55,057 bases of DNA, from contig JAZOWG010000201.1 of assembly GCA_045659105.1 (NCBI GenBank), positions 1 to 55,057 of the forward strand, in the 5' to 3' direction. This document shows positions 7,309 to 33,588 of the stretch, in pieces. Below the pieces are notes generated by a model. That model saw only the letters and a program-made list of their open reading frames with translations, was not told the DNA's origin and searched no databases. The stretch is from Acutalibacteraceae bacterium. Its GTDB lineage: Bacteria; Bacillota; Clostridia; Oscillospirales; Acutalibacteraceae. Each line of letters starts with the position of its first letter. Position 1 is the first letter of the stretch. A program made the translations under genes and the position numbers.

Positions 7309-7974
7309 CTACATATATGCCTCAAGTCTGTAAATGGGCATTCCCATAGAAGAAAACTTTCTTTCATACTCGGTTACGATATTACCTTCAAAATTGCTGT
7401 TGTGAAGGTCAAGTGAAATGTTTTTCAGCTTAAAGCTTGCAAGAGTATATTGCTCAATTGAATATTCAAAGAAATGCATATTGTCTGTTTTTTGATGAAT
7501 TTCAGCGTCAGGTGTGAGAATTTCTTTGTATATTTCAAGGAATTTTATGTTTGTAAGCCTTCTGTTTTCGTTTGCCTTTTTAGGAAGTGGACACGAGAAA
7601 TTGAGATATAATTTGCCGATTGATGCGGGCTTTATGTATTTTGTCAGGATTTCTGCGCCGCATTTCATAAATATTACATTAGTAATTCCTGCTTCCTTTG
7701 CCTTTTTGCAGGCATCGGAAATAACACTTTCGTTGACTTCAACGGCTATGTAGTTGATGTCGGGAGTGCGGGCTGCAAGCTCGAACATAAACTGACCTTT
7801 TCCGCATCCTATTTCCATATGTACGGGGCGGTCATTGCCGAAAAGCTCAGCAAAATCAATATATTCCTTTTGTGCAATTATGGATCTGTGATCGTCCGTG
7901 ACTTTTGGGATAAGGATTATATTATCAAAGGATGCAAGCCTTTCTTCAAGATTCTTTTTTCTTCTCATTCTCAT
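7309..7974 (-). CDS. trmB: tRNA (guanine46-N7)-methyltransferase
   Basis: It has the HMEIGCGKGQF SAM-binding motif and the length and architecture typical of TrmB. Confidence 0.9.
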   Translation of the reverse strand: MRMRRKKNLEERLASFDNIILIPKVTDDHRSIIAQKEYIDFAELFGNDRPVHMEIGCGKGQFMFELAARTPDINYIAVEVNESVISDACKKAKEAGITNVIFMKCGAEILTKYIKPASIGKLYLNFSCPLPKKANENRRLTNIKFLEIYKEILTPDAEIHQKTDNMHFFEYSIEQYTLASFKLKNISLDLHNSNFEGNIVTEYERKFSSMGMPIYRLEAYM

Positions 7975-9147: not shown

Positions 9148-10341
9148 TCAGACAGTAAATTTATATGTAAGCTTGTCTGATTTTACTATCCAGAAGCCGT
9201 GAGCAGTAATTTCGAGAGTGTACTCGCCTGCTGCAAACGGAAAATCAACGCAAAGGGAAATTGCGGCAGGCATATCATTGAGGTAATATGATGAACATAT
9301 TCTTTTTTGCAGAATTATGTCGTTATCAGAATTTCTGACAGCAATTGTGTATGCATTTACTCTGTAACCGTCAGTTTTTGCCTGTGAAAATTCGATATTG
9401 AGTTTATTTTCTTCGGTTGTAATGACACATACGGTGTCATCGGAAAAATAAGGCTTTGCTTCGGTCAGTGCTCTTTCGGAAGTGTAAATAAAGCTTTCGG
9501 GCTCCCATGGTGTTTCAATCAGGTATTCGTTATCGAAAAATCTTTCTGTAAGAATGTCATAAGAAAGAATTCTTACTGCATTGTCTTCATTTACCTCAAC
9601 AATATAGAACTGTGCACACTGCTTTGCGTCCGGGGGAACCGTGCCTGTCATAAGGTCGAATTCGTCAAGCTCGAAATACGAAAATGAGCCTGTGTTTAAT
9701 GAAGTAACATATTTCTGATGAATGCTTCTGGGGTCATTGATAGGTGCGTGAGAATGTCCGGAAAAATCAATTACCTGAGGATAGTCGGCAAGAATTGAGT
9801 TTATATCGTCCTCACCCCAGTTAATGCTTCCGTAAACAGTATCGGTAAGATGGGGATGCTGGAATACAAAAATAGGGGCCTTTCTTCCGCTTTTTACGGA
9901 AAGTGCAAGCTTTTCCTTAAGCCACTCCTGCTTTTTTTCTTTGATTCTGCATCCGTCTTCGGTAGAAAGACAAATAAAGCTGCAGCCCTTTATGTTGAAA
10001 TAATTGTCAGGCTCCATATCATAAATCTGTTTAAGTTTTTCTTTTGCGGCTTCCTGTCCTTCTGACATAAATTCATGGCTTGCAAGCATAAGAGTTATCT
10101 TTGTTTCGGGGCGAATTACTGTATCAAGAGACTCTTTGAATTTAAGCATTTCGTCTGCCTGACCGCGGTTTGCAAAATCTCCTACAGCAAAGAATGCATC
10201 TATATTCTTGTAAGATTCCTGTTCAGCATATTCGTACGCCTTTTTCATACCCTTTTCAAAGCGTTCCTTTTCAATGTCGGTGTCAACTTTATAGTGTATG
10301 TCACTTGTGACAATAAATCTTAATTTTGCGTTGAATTTCAT
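9148..10341 (-). CDS. Calcineurin-like metallophosphoesterase
   Basis: Metallophosphoesterase motifs are present: TSDIHY, GDFANRG, and SHE...FQHPH...GHSHAP. Confidence 0.8.
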   Translation of the reverse strand: MKFNAKLRFIVTSDIHYKVDTDIEKERFEKGMKKAYEYAEQESYKNIDAFFAVGDFANRGQADEMLKFKESLDTVIRPETKITLMLASHEFMSEGQEAAKEKLKQIYDMEPDNYFNIKGCSFICLSTEDGCRIKEKKQEWLKEKLALSVKSGRKAPIFVFQHPHLTDTVYGSINWGEDDINSILADYPQVIDFSGHSHAPINDPRSIHQKYVTSLNTGSFSYFELDEFDLMTGTVPPDAKQCAQFYIVEVNEDNAVRILSYDILTERFFDNEYLIETPWEPESFIYTSERALTEAKPYFSDDTVCVITTEENKLNIEFSQAKTDGYRVNAYTIAVRNSDNDIILQKRICSSYYLNDMPAAISLCVDFPFAAGEYTLEITAHGFWIVKSDKLTYKFTV

Positions 10342-10451: not shown

Positions 10452-12257
10452 TTATTCCTTAATGCCAAAGAGATCTCTGAACCACTGACCGATCTTCTCG
10501 AAGAATTCAACGATCTGATCCCAGATAGATTTAACTTCCTTGTCTGCTATGTCAGTACCTGCATTTACAACGTCCTTAGCTGTGTATTCAGGATACTGTG
10601 AGGGCTGGAATTCATCATTAAATTCAATAACGTTTACACCGGATGCTGTGGAGTAGATGTATGTAGGTGTTTCAGCGTTTTCAATATTGAAAGTAATCTT
10701 TGTCTTAGCATCAACTGCAACGTCAGTAAATGACCAGTCAGCTACTGTGTTATCTGCAAGAAGCTGCTTGTGAATAAGCGTTACATAACCGTTATTTGTA
10801 CCAAGAAGTCTTACCATTTCATCAACGTCTGATTCATAAAGGAACGCGATCTTAAGATAATCATTGTTGTATTCAGAGTGGATAGACTTGAATATACCGT
10901 ACTTGTTATGATCAAGAACAGCTGCACCGTCATTAAGTGTATAGAGCTCGTGCTGCTCTGTGTCTGTGAGAACAAATGAAACGGGGCAATAGATGTAAAT
11001 AGCATCAGTAACCTTCTTGAAGTTTTCGGGGGCGGTATCAAACATAAGGCTTCTCATAATGTCAAGAGCTGCAATTGATACTGCAGTATCTTCATAAAGA
11101 CAACCGTGAAGCTGGTTCTTGATTTTGCCTACAGCACCGCCGTCGTCAGCGATCTTGTATTCAACAAGAGACTGCTCACAAACCTTTCTTGTGGTAAGAA
11201 GAAGATCCATTGTGAAGTATGATTTTTCGGAATCATCTTCTTCATTGTAATAGGAATCAGCTGCCCAGTCAGATGCAAGATCCTGGAACTGATATGCTGT
11301 GTAGAGCTGAGAAAGACGGGGATATGCTTCGTCACAGTTCCAAAGGAAGTCTGCAACTGAGTCAATAACGTCATAAGCCTTCATAGCCCAATTGTAAGCT
11401 GTGGCTGTATAGACATTAGAATTAAGAGCGATGTCAACAAGTGTTTCCGTAACGTTTACAACAGTATCATCAACAAATCTGAGATAGATATCATTCATAG
11501 CCTGATAAACACTTGTTTTCATGTAACCAACAACATTGTTAGCTGCTTTGCGGAGATTTTCGTTTGTTGCAGTTTCTGCAATGTACTTAACGAGATCGAT
11601 GTAATACTGGTTAGCTGCCTGAACGGAGAGAACACGTGCATAATAATCGATAAATTCATTTCTGTAAAGCATAAAGGTGTTTAATATGTTATTTACATCA
11701 CCTATGATTTTCCAGGCAAGACCCCATTCCTCAGACTCAATAACCTTTGAGAATTCATCCCATTTGAGAACATCCTTAACATCCTCAAGGAAACCTGCAG
11801 CATCCTGTGCATAACCGATTGCTTCTTCGATCTTGTCTACATATTCGAAGCAAAGTCTGTTATGTAAGTCTTCTTTATCTGAATTTGTTGCATCGTAGAA
11901 GCCGCCGTAGAAGTCAGCTCTTTCGATAAGTGCAAGAATAAGAAGCTCTGCCTGTTCAATATCGATGTGATGGAAGGTGCCGTTTCTCCATGCTTCATCG
12001 TAAAGAGCAAAAGCTGTCCAATATCCCATTGTATCGGTCATAGCTTTTTCATTAATATTAACGTAATTCCAGCTTGTATAAGCTGTGTCATCAAGAAGCT
12101 GATTGATAAAGAACTGATAATTCTTTTCCCAACCGTCTACATAATGGTCATAATTGACATCTTTTTTTGCGGTGCCTGCAAAAGCTACTACAGAAAGACA
12201 GGAGGCTGTCATAATAACTGCGAGGATAACCGCTACGAGTTTTTTGAAGTTTTTCAT
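10452..12257 (-). CDS. Secreted hypothetical protein (about 600 aa, Sec signal peptide, no domain I recognise)
   Basis: I trimmed the start to MKNFKKLVAVILAVIMTASCLSVVAFAG (ATG at 12257), which follows an AAGGAG RBS. This gives a hydrophobic h-region and an AFA-G cleavage context. Confidence 0.6.
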   Translation of the reverse strand: MKNFKKLVAVILAVIMTASCLSVVAFAGTAKKDVNYDHYVDGWEKNYQFFINQLLDDTAYTSWNYVNINEKAMTDTMGYWTAFALYDEAWRNGTFHHIDIEQAELLILALIERADFYGGFYDATNSDKEDLHNRLCFEYVDKIEEAIGYAQDAAGFLEDVKDVLKWDEFSKVIESEEWGLAWKIIGDVNNILNTFMLYRNEFIDYYARVLSVQAANQYYIDLVKYIAETATNENLRKAANNVVGYMKTSVYQAMNDIYLRFVDDTVVNVTETLVDIALNSNVYTATAYNWAMKAYDVIDSVADFLWNCDEAYPRLSQLYTAYQFQDLASDWAADSYYNEEDDSEKSYFTMDLLLTTRKVCEQSLVEYKIADDGGAVGKIKNQLHGCLYEDTAVSIAALDIMRSLMFDTAPENFKKVTDAIYIYCPVSFVLTDTEQHELYTLNDGAAVLDHNKYGIFKSIHSEYNNDYLKIAFLYESDVDEMVRLLGTNNGYVTLIHKQLLADNTVADWSFTDVAVDAKTKITFNIENAETPTYIYSTASGVNVIEFNDEFQPSQYPEYTAKDVVNAGTDIADKEVKSIWDQIVEFFEKIGQWFRDLFGIKE

Positions 12258-26626: not shown

Positions 26627-26718
26627 GGAGAGTTGTCCGAGTTGGTCGAAGGAGCACGATTGGAAATCGTGTATACGTCATAAGCGTATCAAGGGTTCGA
26701 ATCCCTTACTCTCCGCCA
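26627..26718 (+). tRNA. tRNA-Ser (anticodon GGA), with encoded CCA
   Basis: It folds as a cloverleaf with a GGAGAGT acceptor stem and anticodon loop TTGGAAA flanked by a CACGA/TCGTG stem. It has a long variable arm, a GGTTCGAATCC T-arm and a terminal GCCA. Confidence 0.92.
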
Positions 26719-30502: not shown

Positions 30503-31045
30503 TTATTCCTCTGTCTGCTTTCCTAAAAACTGAGATGCTACCTCAGCAAGCTTTATTTCTGCCTGAGAGGGATATTCGTTTTTGTCATTGAAAAGTACTA
30601 TCACACAGCCTGATACGTCACCGTTTCCGAGGATGGGTACAGCTATACAGGCATTCTTTTCAAGTCCTTCAACGGGCGTAAGTGCTGTTTTGTCCATAGC
30701 TGAAGCAATAAATGAGCTTCTGTTTTCCATAACCTTTTCAAGACCAGCTGAAATTCTCTTTTCGAGTGCATCTTTTTTAGGAATACCCATACAGCATACA
30801 ACGTGGTCACGGTCTGTAATCAGTACCGGCATACCCATTGCCTTATAAAGTACCTCACAGTACTGAGATGTGAATTCCTGTAATTCACCCATGGGCGAAT
30901 ATTTCTTGAAAATTACCTCTCCGTCAATGTCGGTATAAATTTCCAGAGGGTCACCCTCACGGATTCGCATTGTTCTTCGTATTTCCTTCGGAATGACTAC
31001 CCTTCCCAGGTCGTCAATCCGTCGGACAATTCCTGTTGCTTTCAT
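30503..31045 (-). CDS. spoVT: Stage V sporulation protein T (AbrB/SpoVT swapped-hairpin N-domain plus GAF-like C-domain)
   Basis: It begins MKATGIVRRIDDLGRVVIPKEIRRTMRIREGDPLEIY and is 180 aa long, typical of SpoVT. Confidence 0.92.
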   Translation of the reverse strand: MKATGIVRRIDDLGRVVIPKEIRRTMRIREGDPLEIYTDIDGEVIFKKYSPMGELQEFTSQYCEVLYKAMGMPVLITDRDHVVCCMGIPKKDALEKRISAGLEKVMENRSSFIASAMDKTALTPVEGLEKNACIAVPILGNGDVSGCVIVLFNDKNEYPSQAEIKLAEVASQFLGKQTEE

Positions 31046-31084
31046 ATATCTTTCTCCTTAAATTACAAATTGTGATGTTAGTAT
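31014..31084. repeat. Direct repeat copy 1 (71 bp): spoVT leader, RBS, ATG and first about 10 codons
   Basis: My hand alignment to 32110-32180 gives 66/71 identical positions, with mismatches at repeat positions 3, 11, 34, 44 and 53. Confidence 0.95.
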
Positions 31085-31115
31085 CTGTATTTTGAGGAGA
31101 TTTATACTGCTTGAA

Positions 31116-31144
31116 TTTACTTTTTATCTCGGTTGTGATATAAT
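31116..31144 (+). promoter_or_regulatory. Sigma-A-type promoter (extended -10) of the TIR gene
   Basis: TTTACT (31116-31121), a 17-nt spacer ending in TGa, then TATAAT (31139-31144). A GGAGGA RBS lies 8 nt before the ATG. Confidence 0.55.
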
Positions 31145-31172
31145 AGATTAAAAAGCTTGGAGGATATAAATA

Positions 31173-31937
31173 ATGGGTTTTTTTGACAAATTAAAAAAAT
31201 CAAAGGGTGGCTATATTTTTCTTTCCCATTCGCACGATGATATTGAAAAAGTAAGAGAAATAAGAAACAGCCTTGAAAAGGACGGCTTTGAGCCGCTTTG
31301 TTTTTATTTAAAATGTCTTGATGATGATAGTGAAATCGAAGATTTAATTAAAAGAGAAATTGATTCACGTGAATGGTTTATCTTCGTTAATAGCGAAAAT
31401 TCCAGAAAGTCTAAATGGGTAACGCTTGAACGTGAGTACATAACGAAAACAAATAATAAAAAAATCATAACAGTTGATATTGATGATGATAACGATGTTT
31501 CTAAAACCATACAAAAGATAACACACAATTTGCGTGTATTTATATCTTATTCATCCGCAGACAGCAAGATCGCAAGAAGAATTAAAGATAAATTAGAAGC
31601 AAAGGACTATCTTGTATTTTTTGCACCTGATAGTATTCCTACTGGCGCTTCCTATGCCAGTGTTATCGTGAATGCGATTACTGAAGCATCGCAAGATGGA
31701 TGTGTTTTGATTTTAATAACCCCGAATTCCGTCAATAGTTCACATATTCTCAATGAAATAGATGTTGCTTTTTCTAAAAAAGGAAATATCATACCCGTGA
31801 TAATAGGTGATGTAAAATTAACCGACATAATGATGTTCTATTTATCCCGACATCAATTTTACAAATTACCTGAAACACCAACAGATGATGAAATCGACAA
31901 AATGATTGAACAGATTGGGCAGGCTATCATTAAATAG
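31173..31937 (+). CDS. Tandem TIR-domain protein (two TIR-like halves, 254 aa, no other domain)
   Basis: Half 1 reads GYIFLSHSHDDIEKVREIRNSLEKDGF...FVNSENSRKSKWVTLEREY. Half 2 reads RVFISYSSADSKIARRIKDKLEAKDY...ITPNSVNSSHILNEIDVAF. Both show the beta-A [FI][LS]S[HY]S motif, a helix alpha-A and a conserved Glu region as in bacterial TIR_2/ThsB-like domains. Confidence 0.8.
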   Translation: MGFFDKLKKSKGGYIFLSHSHDDIEKVREIRNSLEKDGFEPLCFYLKCLDDDSEIEDLIKREIDSREWFIFVNSENSRKSKWVTLEREYITKTNNKKIITVDIDDDNDVSKTIQKITHNLRVFISYSSADSKIARRIKDKLEAKDYLVFFAPDSIPTGASYASVIVNAITEASQDGCVLILITPNSVNSSHILNEIDVAFSKKGNIIPVIIGDVKLTDIMMFYLSRHQFYKLPETPTDDEIDKMIEQIGQAIIK

Positions 31938-31963
31938 AGCAAGAAATTAGTTGCAACACAAAA

Positions 31964-31990
31964 AGCGAGGGAAATTTTTCCCCCGCTTTT
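31964..31990 (+). terminator. Intrinsic terminator of the TIR gene
   Basis: AGCGAGGGAA...TTCCCCCGCT stem (one mismatch) followed by TTTT. Confidence 0.7.
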
Positions 31991-32030
31991 GATATTTATG
32001 AAAAATAGTCAAAACTCCGTTTTTAACCCC

Positions 32031-32107
32031 AATGCGTTCAGTAGGGCAAACCGGCGAAAACCCTGGTGTTTATGCGGTTTTAAGCGGTTTTCCCTATTAT
32101 AACGCAT
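32031..32107. repeat. 77-nt extended imperfect hairpin/inverted repeat abutting the right direct repeat
   Basis: Arm segments ATGCGTT/AACGCAT, TAGGG/CCCTA, AAACCG/CGGTTT and AAAACC/GGTTTT pair in nested order around the loop ctggtgtttatgc. Confidence 0.8.
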
Positions 32108-32141
32108 GCTCGATCCGTCTGACAATTCCTGTTGCTTTCAT
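32097..32141 (-). pseudogene. spoVT 5' remnant (14-codon stump, MKATGIVRRIEHAL*)
   Basis: It lies inside repeat copy 2. The first 10 codons match intact spoVT, then the frame runs into unrelated sequence and a stop. The RBS is degraded (AAGGAG -> AATGAG). Confidence 0.8.
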
Positions 32142-32180
32142 AAATCTTTCTCATTAAATTATAAATTGTGATGTTAGTAT
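32110..32180. repeat. Direct repeat copy 2 (71 bp)
   Basis: See copy 1. The offset between copies is 1096 bp. Confidence 0.95.
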
Positions 32181-32204
32181 TAGCAGGAATTGTTGAAAAA
32201 TTCA
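32175..32204 (-). promoter_or_regulatory. Forespore sigma-G/F-like promoter (probably the ancestral spoVT promoter), now driving only the stump
   Basis: On the minus strand, TGAATT (complement of 32199-32204), a 17-nt spacer, then AATACTA (complement of 32175-32181). The remembered sigma-G consensus is TGAATA-N17/18-CATACTA. Confidence 0.45.
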
Positions 32205-32214
32205 GAAAATATAC

Positions 32215-32246
32215 AAAAAAATGACTGTACCAAAATGATACAGTCA
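32215..32246 (-). terminator. Intrinsic terminator of the 32252-33349 gene
   Basis: The minus strand reads UGACUGUA-loop-UACAGUCA followed by U7. Confidence 0.8.
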
Positions 32247-32251
32247 GAAAT

Positions 32252-33349
32252 TTACATAAGCTTTAAGCCTTTGGCGACGAGGGTTATGAAGTCCTGGACA
32301 TTTGCAACTACGGTTGTTGCGCTGAGGCTTCCTCTGTCGAGGAGCTTATTTACTACGAATTCGTCAATGTCAACAGTGTAGATATACACTGGACGGACGG
32401 TACCGTCTTCCGTAACTCTGAAAGAGGGCGTCATATTGCCTGTTGCAATTGTATGAAGCATTGTAGCCATACAGATAACTGTTGTGGATTTTTTTACAAG
32501 CTTTCGCATCTCATCGGCAGCCTTATATACATCACCGATTACCTCGGGAAGAGGGCCGTCATCACGGATTGAGCCTGCAAGAACAAAAGGAACGTTATTT
32601 TTTACACAGCTGCACATTATGCCGTCATCAAGATTGTAGTCCTTAATAAACTGAGGGATAGAACCGCTTCTGCGTACCTTGTTGCAGATATCAAGGTGAT
32701 TATAATGACCGTTAGGCTGACATTTCTGTGTGTATATATCCTGACCGAGTGCGGTATGAAGCAAAGCACCTTCAAGGTCATGGGTTGCAAGGGCATTTCC
32801 TGCAAGAACACCGTGAGCATAACCGTTATCAATCAGAAGTGACATTGCTTTTCTTGCATCTGCATCAAAGGAGAATGCAGGTCCCATAACCCATATGATA
32901 TTTCCGTGCTCTTTTTCGTATTTAAGAAGCTCGAAAAGATTGTCGTAATCTCTTGAATATGATGTTTCACGGCTTCTGCCCTGACGGAATGTGAACTGAT
33001 CGTGCATTATTTCATCATCGGTTACAAAGCCGTTAGCGTGAAGAAAAATACCTTCCTCGCAGTTTTCGGTTCTTCCGAGAATTACCTTATCACCTCTTCT
33101 GAGATTGCGGGCTTCAACAACCTTTAATTCTCCGTCGGAAGCGATGATGACACAGGAATCCATACGGCTTTCTTTGGCAAGAAGCCACTTCCCTGCAATC
33201 TTGAAATACTCGGGAAACATTGACGTGCTGTGAAAATTTTCGGGAGCAACACCGTCAGTATCCGTTACAGCATATTCGCAGTCGGGTGAATTTATAAATT
33301 TATCCTGAGAAAAATCAGGCGCAATATAGCGGGGCATTGTAAATGACAT
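32252..33349 (-). CDS. LOR/SDH-like TIGR00300-family protein (archaeal-type ornithine cyclodeaminase-like); assignment tentative
   Basis: 365 aa. The motifs GVLAGNALATHDLE and LAGSIRDDGPLPEVI recall the deoxyhypusine-synthase-like fold of this family. This comes from memory only. Confidence 0.45.
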   Translation of the reverse strand: MSFTMPRYIAPDFSQDKFINSPDCEYAVTDTDGVAPENFHSTSMFPEYFKIAGKWLLAKESRMDSCVIIASDGELKVVEARNLRRGDKVILGRTENCEEGIFLHANGFVTDDEIMHDQFTFRQGRSRETSYSRDYDNLFELLKYEKEHGNIIWVMGPAFSFDADARKAMSLLIDNGYAHGVLAGNALATHDLEGALLHTALGQDIYTQKCQPNGHYNHLDICNKVRRSGSIPQFIKDYNLDDGIMCSCVKNNVPFVLAGSIRDDGPLPEVIGDVYKAADEMRKLVKKSTTVICMATMLHTIATGNMTPSFRVTEDGTVRPVYIYTVDIDEFVVNKLLDRGSLSATTVVANVQDFITLVAKGLKLM

Positions 33350-33500: not shown

Positions 33501-33588
33501 GGAGAGTTGTCCGAGTGGTCGAAGGTGCAGCACTCGAAATGCTGTGTGGGGAAACTCACCCAGGGTTCGAATCCCTGACTCTCCGCCA
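33501..33588 (+). tRNA. tRNA-Ser (anticodon CGA), with encoded CCA
   Basis: It has a GGAGAGT acceptor stem, anticodon loop CTCGAAA between CAGCA/TGCTG, a long variable arm, a GGTTCGAATCC T-arm and a terminal GCCA. Confidence 0.92.

Follow-up and report, generated by a model that had tools for sequence, protein, structure and literature searches.

What does a gene for two fused TIR domains do between two copies of the start of spoVT, the gene of a sporulation regulator, and how did it come to lie there? We address this question in a stretch of 55,057 nucleotides (nt) from an Acutalibacteraceae bacterium (positions 1 to 55,057 of contig JAZOWG010000201.1, assembly GCA_045659105.1), referred to here as the window, in which an open reading frame (ORF) at 31173-31937 on the plus strand encodes a tandem-TIR (TIR-TIR) protein of 254 amino acids (aa). 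The reading we favour, with moderate confidence, is that positions 31085-32180 are one mobile cassette in a hotspot at the spoVT start, that such cassettes enter through a portable copy of the spoVT 5' end, and that the cargo here is a stand-alone TIR NADase. Cassette anatomy, recurrence in many genomes, variety of cargo and turnover between near-identical strains were observed directly. Loci other than the window are designated by L numbers.

A tandem-TIR gene between two spoVT starts

The initial annotation had recognized two TIR-like halves, each with a glutamate where TIR NADases carry the catalytic one, and profile matches, a family alignment and an AlphaFold2 model upheld this. The product of 31173-31937 matched Pfam TIR_2 at 1.8e-33 overall, and each half, scored separately, lay above the curated cut-off of 28 bits (N half, 53.7 bits and 3.6e-14; C half, 66.9 bits and 3e-18). 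Pfam ThsB_TIR, with a cut-off of 21.2 bits, gave 28.8 bits for the N half and 24.0 bits for the C half. The N-terminal domain (N-TIR) covers about aa 13-105 and includes Glu86 (W82-x3-E; codon at 31428-31430), which is kept in 45 of 45 aligned family members. The C-terminal domain (C-TIR) covers about aa 121-235, and its Glu195 (codon at 31755-31757) is kept in 44 of the 45. The beta-A motif was conserved in both halves. In profile alignments, which compare sequence only, E195 aligned with the catalytic Lys-Glu of Caenorhabditis elegans TIR-1/SARM1 and E86 with the equivalent W-x-x-W-E of PDB entry 8btn_B. We conclude that a glutamate at the predicted catalytic position, equivalent to E642 of SARM1, is present in both TIR halves.

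Structure prediction followed by a Foldseek search, a check that the initial annotation had proposed, gave a confident model of the 254-aa protein (predicted local distance difference test score 86.8, predicted template modelling score 0.84). Its best matches were the TIR domains of TIR NADases, namely TIR-STING, SPARTA TIR-APAZ, SARM1, SpbK and AbTir, with a Foldseek probability of 1.0 to 6wt7, 8qlp, 6o0u, 9phb and 7uxu, and model and matches together identify the flavodoxin-like TIR fold. The two domains are unlike each other. Column identity across the 45 members was 0.87 in the nearly invariant N-TIR and 0.60 in the variable C-TIR, and the N half resembled ThsB models while the C half resembled SAVED-TIR and Argonaute-associated TIR models. 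An origin of the two domains by internal duplication was rejected, as BLASTP found no similarity between the halves.

The gene is bracketed by direct repeats at 31014-31084 and 32110-32180 (minus strand), which are 71 nt long, identical at 66 of 71 positions (93%) and 1096 nt apart, as had been counted at the outset. Each contains a ribosome-binding site (RBS), the spoVT ATG (at 31045 and 32141) and 11 codons. The left copy belongs to the intact spoVT gene (30503-31045, minus strand; 180 aa; Pfam SpoVT_C 6e-37, MazE/AbrB N-domain 2.4e-11, NCBIfam spore_V_T 2.3e-65), the anchor of the array, and holds spoVT codons 1-11, the RBS at 31053-31059 and most of the -10 element. The functional spoVT promoter, GTATA-N17-GATACTA at 31079-31107 (minus strand), is a motif conserved upstream of full and partial spoVT copies at about 40 loci; its -35 element lies within cassette-borne DNA. 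By its consensus, this promoter is putatively of a forespore type (sigma-G/F-like). In the right copy the RBS has mutated to AATGAGA. Outward of it lies ancestral intergenic DNA (32181-32251, minus strand) with a decayed spoVT promoter remnant and the terminator (32222-32246) of an ornithine-cyclodeaminase-like (ODC-like) gene. In the stretch 32181-32221 (minus strand), which precedes the displaced spoVT start, GTATA and AATACTA are spaced by 28 nt rather than 17, and this ancestral promoter copy appears dead.

The TIR-TIR gene has its own expression signals, as the initial annotation had stated. Its promoter (TTTACT-17-TATAAT with a TGTG extended -10; 31116-31144, plus strand) scored 10/12 with TG in a promoter scan and is divergent to spoVT, and its RBS lies at 31159-31164 on the plus strand. 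A G+C-rich hairpin at 31960-31990, found by a terminator scan, is a bidirectional terminator common to the TIR gene and to a convergent transcript described below. Equivalent hairpins in other cassettes carry compensatory changes (GGAG/CTCC versus GAGG/CCTC). The lower G+C content first noted by eye was also confirmed: the gene has a G+C fraction of 0.325, and 0.275 at third codon positions (GC3), versus 0.43-0.45 and 0.38-0.44 for the spoVT, ODC-like, ATPase and isoleucyl-tRNA synthetase (IleRS) genes.

We compared three relatives, L175, L176 and L177, whose ODC-like proteins are 90-95% identical to that of the window and which share its synteny, IleRS-MIF-MgtE-ODC on one side and spoVT-ATPase-GDPD on the other. 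All three carry other genes at this site, and the TIR-TIR gene was absent from each of them. Between the ODC-like gene and spoVT, L175 holds a 379-aa ORF and a DMP19 gene, L176 holds four ORFs that all face away from spoVT, and L177 holds a DUF7575 gene together with a remnant of the first 34 spoVT codons and the canonical tail A (see below), 115 nt after the ODC-like gene. The right repeat of the window lies 110 nt from the ODC-like stop codon, and because the L177 remnant stands at a matching distance, we identify the right repeat as the displaced ancestral spoVT start. With these results, we conclude that the TIR-TIR gene was acquired at the 5' end of the sporulation regulator gene, as first suggested.

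The remainder of the window is housekeeping. The outer edge of the hotspot is a core gene for a nickel-pincer nucleotide (NPN)-dependent ODC-like protein (32252-33349, minus strand; NCBIfam ODC_var 7.9e-186; synteny in L175-L177), and the neighbours of the cassette are spoVT, a P-type ATPase gene, GDPD, the ODC-like gene, MgtE and IleRS. There was no sensor, effector or cyclase gene and no recombinase in the 55 kb, which agrees with the earlier view that the gene matches no Thoeris, CBASS or retron layout. Rfam identified tRNA genes at 26627-26715 and 33501-33585; neither is part of the repeats, and one of the two is located near the hotspot, in the interval that separates mgtE from the ODC-like gene. 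An exact look-up of the window SpoVT protein in other assemblies returned no record.

Cassette arrays at the start of spoVT

The initial annotation had described an isolated insertion. Instead, the window holds one cassette of an array that recurs at the spoVT start in dozens of loci with varied cargo. Arrays of approximately 1-kb cassettes precede spoVT across about 90 metagenomic loci; a metagenome scan queried with the tail alone (see below) returned 80 loci, and a genome-collection scan queried with the single TIR-TIR protein sequence returned three. From the scan loci and loci fetched earlier we delimited 40 cassettes by consecutive modules, with a median unit length of 1.1 kb. A single main ORF was present in 29 of the 40, and 26 of these 29 ORFs face away from spoVT. 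Cargo of the defence or toxin type included TIR-TIR, other TIR, Fic, RES, Abi_2, OLD-family ATPase-nuclease and HTH-ADP-ribosylglycohydrolase proteins. Other cargo included PHP, polysaccharide deacetylase, acyltransferases, LRR and WG-repeat proteins, DUF4177 and many unknowns. Each of the spoVT copies is preceded by a back-to-back promoter block that is conserved, with GTATA-N17-GATACTA and an RBS for spoVT and TTTACT-N17-TATAAT with TGTG for the cargo, and the cargo element also precedes unrelated genes in other loci. Because this conserved block reads into the cargo, we conclude that each cassette is an expression unit made of cargo promoter, ORF, hairpin, tail and spoVT 5' copy. Recombinase families, Phage_integrase among them, were absent from the cargo scans and from the called neighbours of 12 long loci, integrase models having been run on part of the ORFs. 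A literature search of incomplete coverage found no paper on cassette arrays at spoVT. Taken together, the spoVT-start arrays are widespread, integron-like and apparently undescribed in gut Clostridia.

The cassettes are separated by modules. Each module contains a copy of the spoVT promoter with the first 34 or the first 11 codons and, divergent to it, the sigma-A-type promoter of the cargo; a non-coding tail, of type A or B, and a terminator hairpin complete it. Most partial spoVT copies end at codon 34, at ...GAGGGnGACCC, and continue into the conserved tail A of about 75 nt, with the layout ...ACATTGACA-N25-TACATAG...GATATAAAG followed by a hairpin with compensatory stem changes. ACATTGACA and TACATAG are invariant blocks. 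Tail A was seen at L002:6754-6882, L005:3004-3117, L006:9642-9782 and 10762-10888, L177:8304-8423 and about 80 metagenome loci. The first 34 aa of SpoVT and tail A read together as an ORF of 57-60 aa, which occurs in at least 120 protein clusters and is 81-93% identical among the best 120 matches. Across 44 unique copies, entropy at the three codon positions was 0.37/0.13/1.38 in the spoVT part versus 0.58/0.46/0.69 in tail A, and synonymous sites were invariant in ACATTGACA and TACATAG. Because of this flat codon-position entropy and these invariant synonymous sites, the constraint on tail A is mainly on the nucleotide sequence. The tail may still be translated, because the reading frame is open through it in 35 of the 44 copies.

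Two further explanations of tail A were rejected. As a decayed continuation of spoVT it aligned locally with 14 spoVT genes no better than shuffled sequences did (z -1.3 to 1.8), and as a structured RNA or attC-like site it yielded only the terminator hairpin when RNAalifold was run on 18 tail-A units. In three loci a Fic cassette lies between two tail-A copies (L098:11060-11181, L120:11060-11187, L154:~650-760). The second copy begins at CATTGACA and has no preceding spoVT copy; a cassette can therefore be bracketed by tails only.

Tail A is absent from the window. The right repeat there had been read as a bare footprint of the insertion; it is instead the first part of a conserved module at 31991-32180, made of the first 11 spoVT codons and tail B. 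Tail B (31991-32109, minus strand) follows codon 11 and fills the approximately 120 nt that part the right repeat from the terminator. It is conserved in the window, L099, L109, L115, L125, L141 and L150 (which has two copies), and more diverged forms occur in L001, L002, L098, L151 and L153. At its junction with spoVT a sigma-A-type promoter is formed (TTGTCA-18-TATAAT; 32096-32125, minus strand), which scored 11/12 and is the best promoter-like site in the region; TTGTCA comes from spoVT codons 6-7 and TATAAT, nearly invariant in the alignment, from the tail. This promoter would drive an RNA of tail B. Beyond it the sequence folds into nested stems (32085-32094/32044-32053; GGGAAAACCG/CGGTTTGCCC and AAAACC/GGTTTT) and stops at the shared hairpin, with a fold z-score of -2.9. 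In 12 sequences 77% of cells pair, and the covariation score was equalled by 10 of 500 shuffles; no compensatory pairs occur among eight close copies, and the covariation is suggestive only. Rfam at gathering thresholds gave no match for tail A or tail B, and in the window region only chance-level matches at E<1. We therefore regard tail B as a candidate small RNA gene within the cassette (31958-32125, minus strand), with a predicted promoter, nested-stem domain and intrinsic terminator.

Small inserts were also seen in the modules. An element of about 62 nt (GGTCTCGGC...GGTGTCCACAGGACACC...), which is GC-rich and contains a hairpin, lies exactly at the junction of codon 34 and the tail in two unrelated loci (L011:~7720-7782, minus strand; L120:~9937-10000), and a different element occurs at L126:~950-1005. 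Further GC-rich palindromic inserts lie within module promoters of L002 and L120. These inserts may be small elements, resembling miniature inverted-repeat transposable elements, that target the junction.

The TIR-TIR gene itself belongs to a large family. A word-indexed search with the window protein found 378 homologues, the best 120 of which are 55-83% identical and 248-277 aa long except for two truncated entries. An exhaustive search of 50%-identity representatives gave 177 clusters at E<=1e-30, most of 245-275 aa with both domains covered. The term "orphan" used at first therefore holds for the lack of partner genes and fails for the protein, which has hundreds of homologues of the same length. 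In eight of 10 independent long contexts (the window, L001, L002, L005/L008, L006, L007, L009 and L011) the gene lies at, or a few kb from, the spoVT 5' end, and the other flanks differ. In L010 and L012 it lies away from spoVT. Partial spoVT copies accompany it: there are two in L002, two in L006 on either side of TIR-TIR and a 188-aa ORF, one in L005 that follows a PHP gene, and one in L011 that follows a gene for a 1049-aa LRR protein. About 128 nt separate the divergent start codons of TIR-TIR and the spoVT copy in the window, L001, L006 and L011, and TIR-TIR forms a single-gene cassette in the window, L001, L002 and L006. TIR-TIR cargo is combined with type-B modules in the window and L001 and with type-A modules in L002, L006, L132 and L143. 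In L012 (8001-9671; also L013-L015) a homologue of 58% identity that is not at spoVT adjoins an IS3-family (rve) transposase, and this is a second route by which the gene travels. The family was absent from IMG/VR, and phage and plasmid collections gave only distant single-TIR matches. Phage or plasmid carriage of the arrays was rejected, as the tail motif was essentially absent from 79 viral-contig loci holding SpoVT/AbrB starts.

Large proteins that combine a TIR-like or DUF4062 N-terminus with TPR repeats were found near TIR-TIR at L005:3364-5772, L007:4689-6674, L143 (cassette 0; 953 aa) and L001:9589-10623, those of L007 and L143 being 42% identical over 457 aa. These proteins may act together with TIR-TIR or may just be frequent co-cargo; none was found within the 55-kb window.

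Cassettes turn over between close strains. L120 and L130 are 99.2% identical over 3.3 kb that include spoVT, and the spoVT-proximal cassette differs. L095 and L150 are 96% identical in the spoVT region, and their arrays are entirely different. The Fic cassette is 95% identical over 1.18 kb between L098 and L120, which elsewhere share only short module fragments of 75-81% identity. The TIR cassette of L002 is flanked by 298-nt repeats; because these are 98% identical, they point to a recent event.

Entry of cassettes and function of the cargo

How might a cassette enter? In the orientation of the window it would comprise a spoVT 5' copy with its forespore-type promoter, the divergent sigma-A-type promoter, the tandem-TIR ORF, the terminator and tail B. 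Recombination of the cassette-borne spoVT 5' copy with the chromosomal spoVT would place the cassette; the cassette-borne 5' end and promoter would then serve the intact gene, and the old 5' end would be pushed outward to 32110-32180, beside the ODC-like gene. Repeated insertions would build arrays, and recombination between modules would remove or swap cassettes. We slightly favour general homologous (RecA-type) recombination over a dedicated recombinase acting in trans. The direct repeats of the target-gene end measure 71 nt in the window and 117-298 nt in L005, L006 and L002, and this variation in the outer limit of the duplication (71, 117, 182 and 298 nt) argues for homologous recombination. 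So do the identity of module copies, with a mean of 0.90 within an array versus 0.78 between loci, and the finding that no recombinase gene was seen in or beside any array.

The TIR-TIR protein is most likely a self-contained TIR NADase, a putative defence enzyme that vegetative cells would express. Catalysis would fall to the ThsB-like, nearly invariant N-TIR, and regulation or phage sensing to the variable C-TIR of the SARM1/STING type; upon infection the protein would deplete NAD+ or make a product derived from adenosine diphosphate ribose. The coupling to sporulation proposed earlier is supported by position only, and the cargo promoter is of the sigma-A type.

Several observations weigh against the favoured reading, in which the direction and enzymology of insertion are what we infer. 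The inner junction always falls at codon 34 in type A and at codon 11 in type B, tail blocks such as ACATTGACA and TACATAG are invariant, and identity between L098 and L120 jumps from 75% to 95% exactly at the junction of codon 34 and the tail; a site-specific mechanism fits the fixed junction, the invariant blocks and the exact switch better than random crossovers. The 71 nt at 93% identity are short for RecA-type recombination, and within one array some module copies have diverged as far as copies of separate genomes have (0.76-0.85). A strictly empty site, with the ODC-like gene directly beside spoVT and one repeat copy, had been suggested as a check; relatives that lack TIR-TIR were found, but all three of the closest carry other cassettes and no empty site was found. 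As for the cargo, its NADase and defence role is putative, and the AlphaFold2 model does not distinguish an active from an auto-inhibited TIR pair. Cassettes related to TIR-TIR in L005, L007 and L143 also have the large TIR/DUF4062-TPR proteins as neighbours and potential partners.

The first set of observations could be explained by a dedicated site-specific recombinase whose gene would lie elsewhere in the genome or on a helper element. This enzyme would use the junction of codon 34 and the tail, or the tail itself, as an attC- or att-like site in the manner of an integron or of an integrase-less cis-mobilizable element of the kind that builds up at gene ends. We consider this possible, if doubtful. 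It would account for a constant inner junction, GAGGGnGACCC, which sits on a 6-1-6 palindrome of the intact spoVT, for the invariant blocks and weak codon periodicity of the tail, for the identity jump, for the approximately 62-nt GC-rich element at the same junction in L011 and L120, and for the uniform orientation of the cassettes (26 of 29). However, no integrase, resolvase or transposase was linked to the arrays, the sole case being the IS3 transposase beside the non-spoVT copy in L012. The tail has no conserved attC-like structure apart from the terminator hairpin, the outer limits of the duplication vary widely, and there are two junction types instead of one, at codon 34 and codon 11. 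Tail conservation could otherwise be explained if the 57-60-aa ORF were a real small AbrB-like protein, which might regulate the cargo in the manner of an antitoxin or act as a dominant-negative fragment of SpoVT. Its presence in so many clusters at a constant length, with conservative substitutions, the frame open in most DNA copies and the public annotation as an AbrB/MazE/SpoVT-family protein are consistent with this. We nevertheless think it improbable: codon-position entropy is nearly flat in the tail, whereas the spoVT part varies strongly at third positions, the synonymous sites of ACATTGACA and TACATAG are invariant, and type-B modules, including that of the window, encode only 14 codons. 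Half of the swapped-hairpin AbrB fold is also missing from the fragment. Gene callers label displaced spoVT fragments as AbrB/SpoVT-family proteins, probably wrongly.

The alternatives for the TIR-TIR gene concern its history and its partners. It would be very surprising if the gene were an old, vertically inherited neighbour of spoVT that is tied to sporulation, with the repeats left by later insertions of other genes. The immediate divergent arrangement with a spacing of about 128 nt in four loci, the unusual conservation of N-TIR and an identity of TIR-TIR above that of SpoVT in three of four genome pairs compared (72-78% versus 55-62% for L001, L002 and L007; 75 versus 74% for L006) could be taken that way. 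Conservation above that of SpoVT, however, argues for horizontal spread, and the closest syntenic relatives lack the gene. Its composition is foreign (GC3 0.275), its sigma-A-type promoter is common to unrelated cargo, modules stand on both sides of it in the window, L002 and L006, and it also lies away from spoVT in L010 and L012. It is also unlikely, if less so, that TIR-TIR is not self-contained and instead, like ThsB, produces a signalling nucleotide that acts on an effector whose gene lies elsewhere, or cooperates with a large TIR/DUF4062-TPR protein. The N half does match Pfam ThsB_TIR at 1.7e-06 and PADLOC ThsB models down to 6.1e-11, and TIR/DUF4062-TPR proteins lie near TIR-TIR in L005, L007 and L143, as does a DUF4062 protein in L001. 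On the other side, SIR2, SLOG and Macro genes and such TPR proteins were not found in the 55-kb window, and TIR-TIR forms a one-gene cassette in four loci.

Relation to known systems

The known systems nearest to the spoVT arrays, which could prove a distinct platform, are chromosomal integrons and integrase-less elements that accrete in tandem at the ends of genes. Like sedentary chromosomal integrons, the arrays occupy one fixed site and consist of mostly single-ORF cassettes of about 1 kb in uniform orientation, separated by a conserved repeat; the cargo is rich in toxin and defence types, and turnover between close strains is rapid. In contrast to integrons, no IntI integrase was seen nearby, there is no attI or attC hairpin, and inspection revealed no RYYYAAC or GTTRRRY attC cores. 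The separating repeat is a module of about 190-300 nt that includes a host-gene 5' end and promoter, and every spoVT cassette brings its own promoter, whereas integrons rely on a common Pc and promoterless cassettes. The hosts are Clostridia, in which integrons are essentially not known. With the accretion of integrative and conjugative elements and cis-mobilizable elements, and with tRNA-gene islands, the arrays share an insert that replaces the interrupted gene end and leaves the gene intact, an old end that persists as a direct repeat, and tandem arrays formed by repetition. They differ in that the spoVT elements are about 1 kb long with one cargo gene and have no integrase, excisionase or transfer genes, and in that they target a protein-coding gene at its 5' end, promoter included, with a duplication of 71-298 nt. 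As in defence islands and hotspots, a variable block of defence-type genes lies between core genes (the ODC-like gene and spoVT) and differs among close relatives; unlike in those, a repeated cis module of promoters, tail and terminator travels with spoVT when the other flank differs.

The cargo of the window shares with TIR NADases (Thoeris ThsB, SpbK, AbTir, TIR-STING, SPARTA TIR-APAZ and SARM1) the fold, the beta-A motif and the catalytic-position glutamate, here in both halves. It differs from them as two unlike TIRs fused in 254 aa with no further domain and with no ThsA, STING, Ago or SAVED partner. Thoeris types I-III would call for a neighbouring effector of the ThsA type (SIR2, Macro/SLOG or transmembrane), which is absent, and NCBIfam ThcB4 gave 36 bits versus a cut-off of 220. 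Likewise, there is no adjacent cyclase, reverse transcriptase or Argonaute and no fused SAVED, STING or APAZ of the kind seen in CBASS, Pycsar, retron-TIR or SPARTA systems, and a retron-TIR model scored the protein at 40 bits versus a cut-off of 600. A literature search, again of incomplete coverage, found no bacterial tandem-TIR system described.

We put forward tentatively, as a bolder possibility, that gut Clostridia have in these arrays a so far undescribed platform dedicated to gene capture and functionally analogous to integrons. Such a platform would have its own cis machinery, consisting of the spoVT 5' copy with its promoter, the cargo promoter and the tail as a DNA motif (type A) or small RNA (type B), and would be served by a recombinase in trans or by an RNA-assisted mechanism, with the tandem-TIR protein as a self-sufficient abortive-infection NADase among its cargo.

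If the reading given here is true, the arrays would be a test case for cassette arrays that form without a linked integrase, and the window protein would offer a minimal two-TIR protein for studying how a conserved and a variable TIR share the work. The spoVT 5' copy with its tail would be a sequence handle with which hundreds of candidate defence genes could be harvested from metagenomes. For the organisms themselves, it would mean that sporulating Clostridia of the gut and rumen possess a compact store of accessory functions, integron-like and with one gene for each function, that is wired to the start of a conserved sporulation regulator and in which many of the stored genes (TIR, Fic, RES, Abi_2, OLD and ADP-ribosylglycohydrolase) look like phage-defence or toxin genes.

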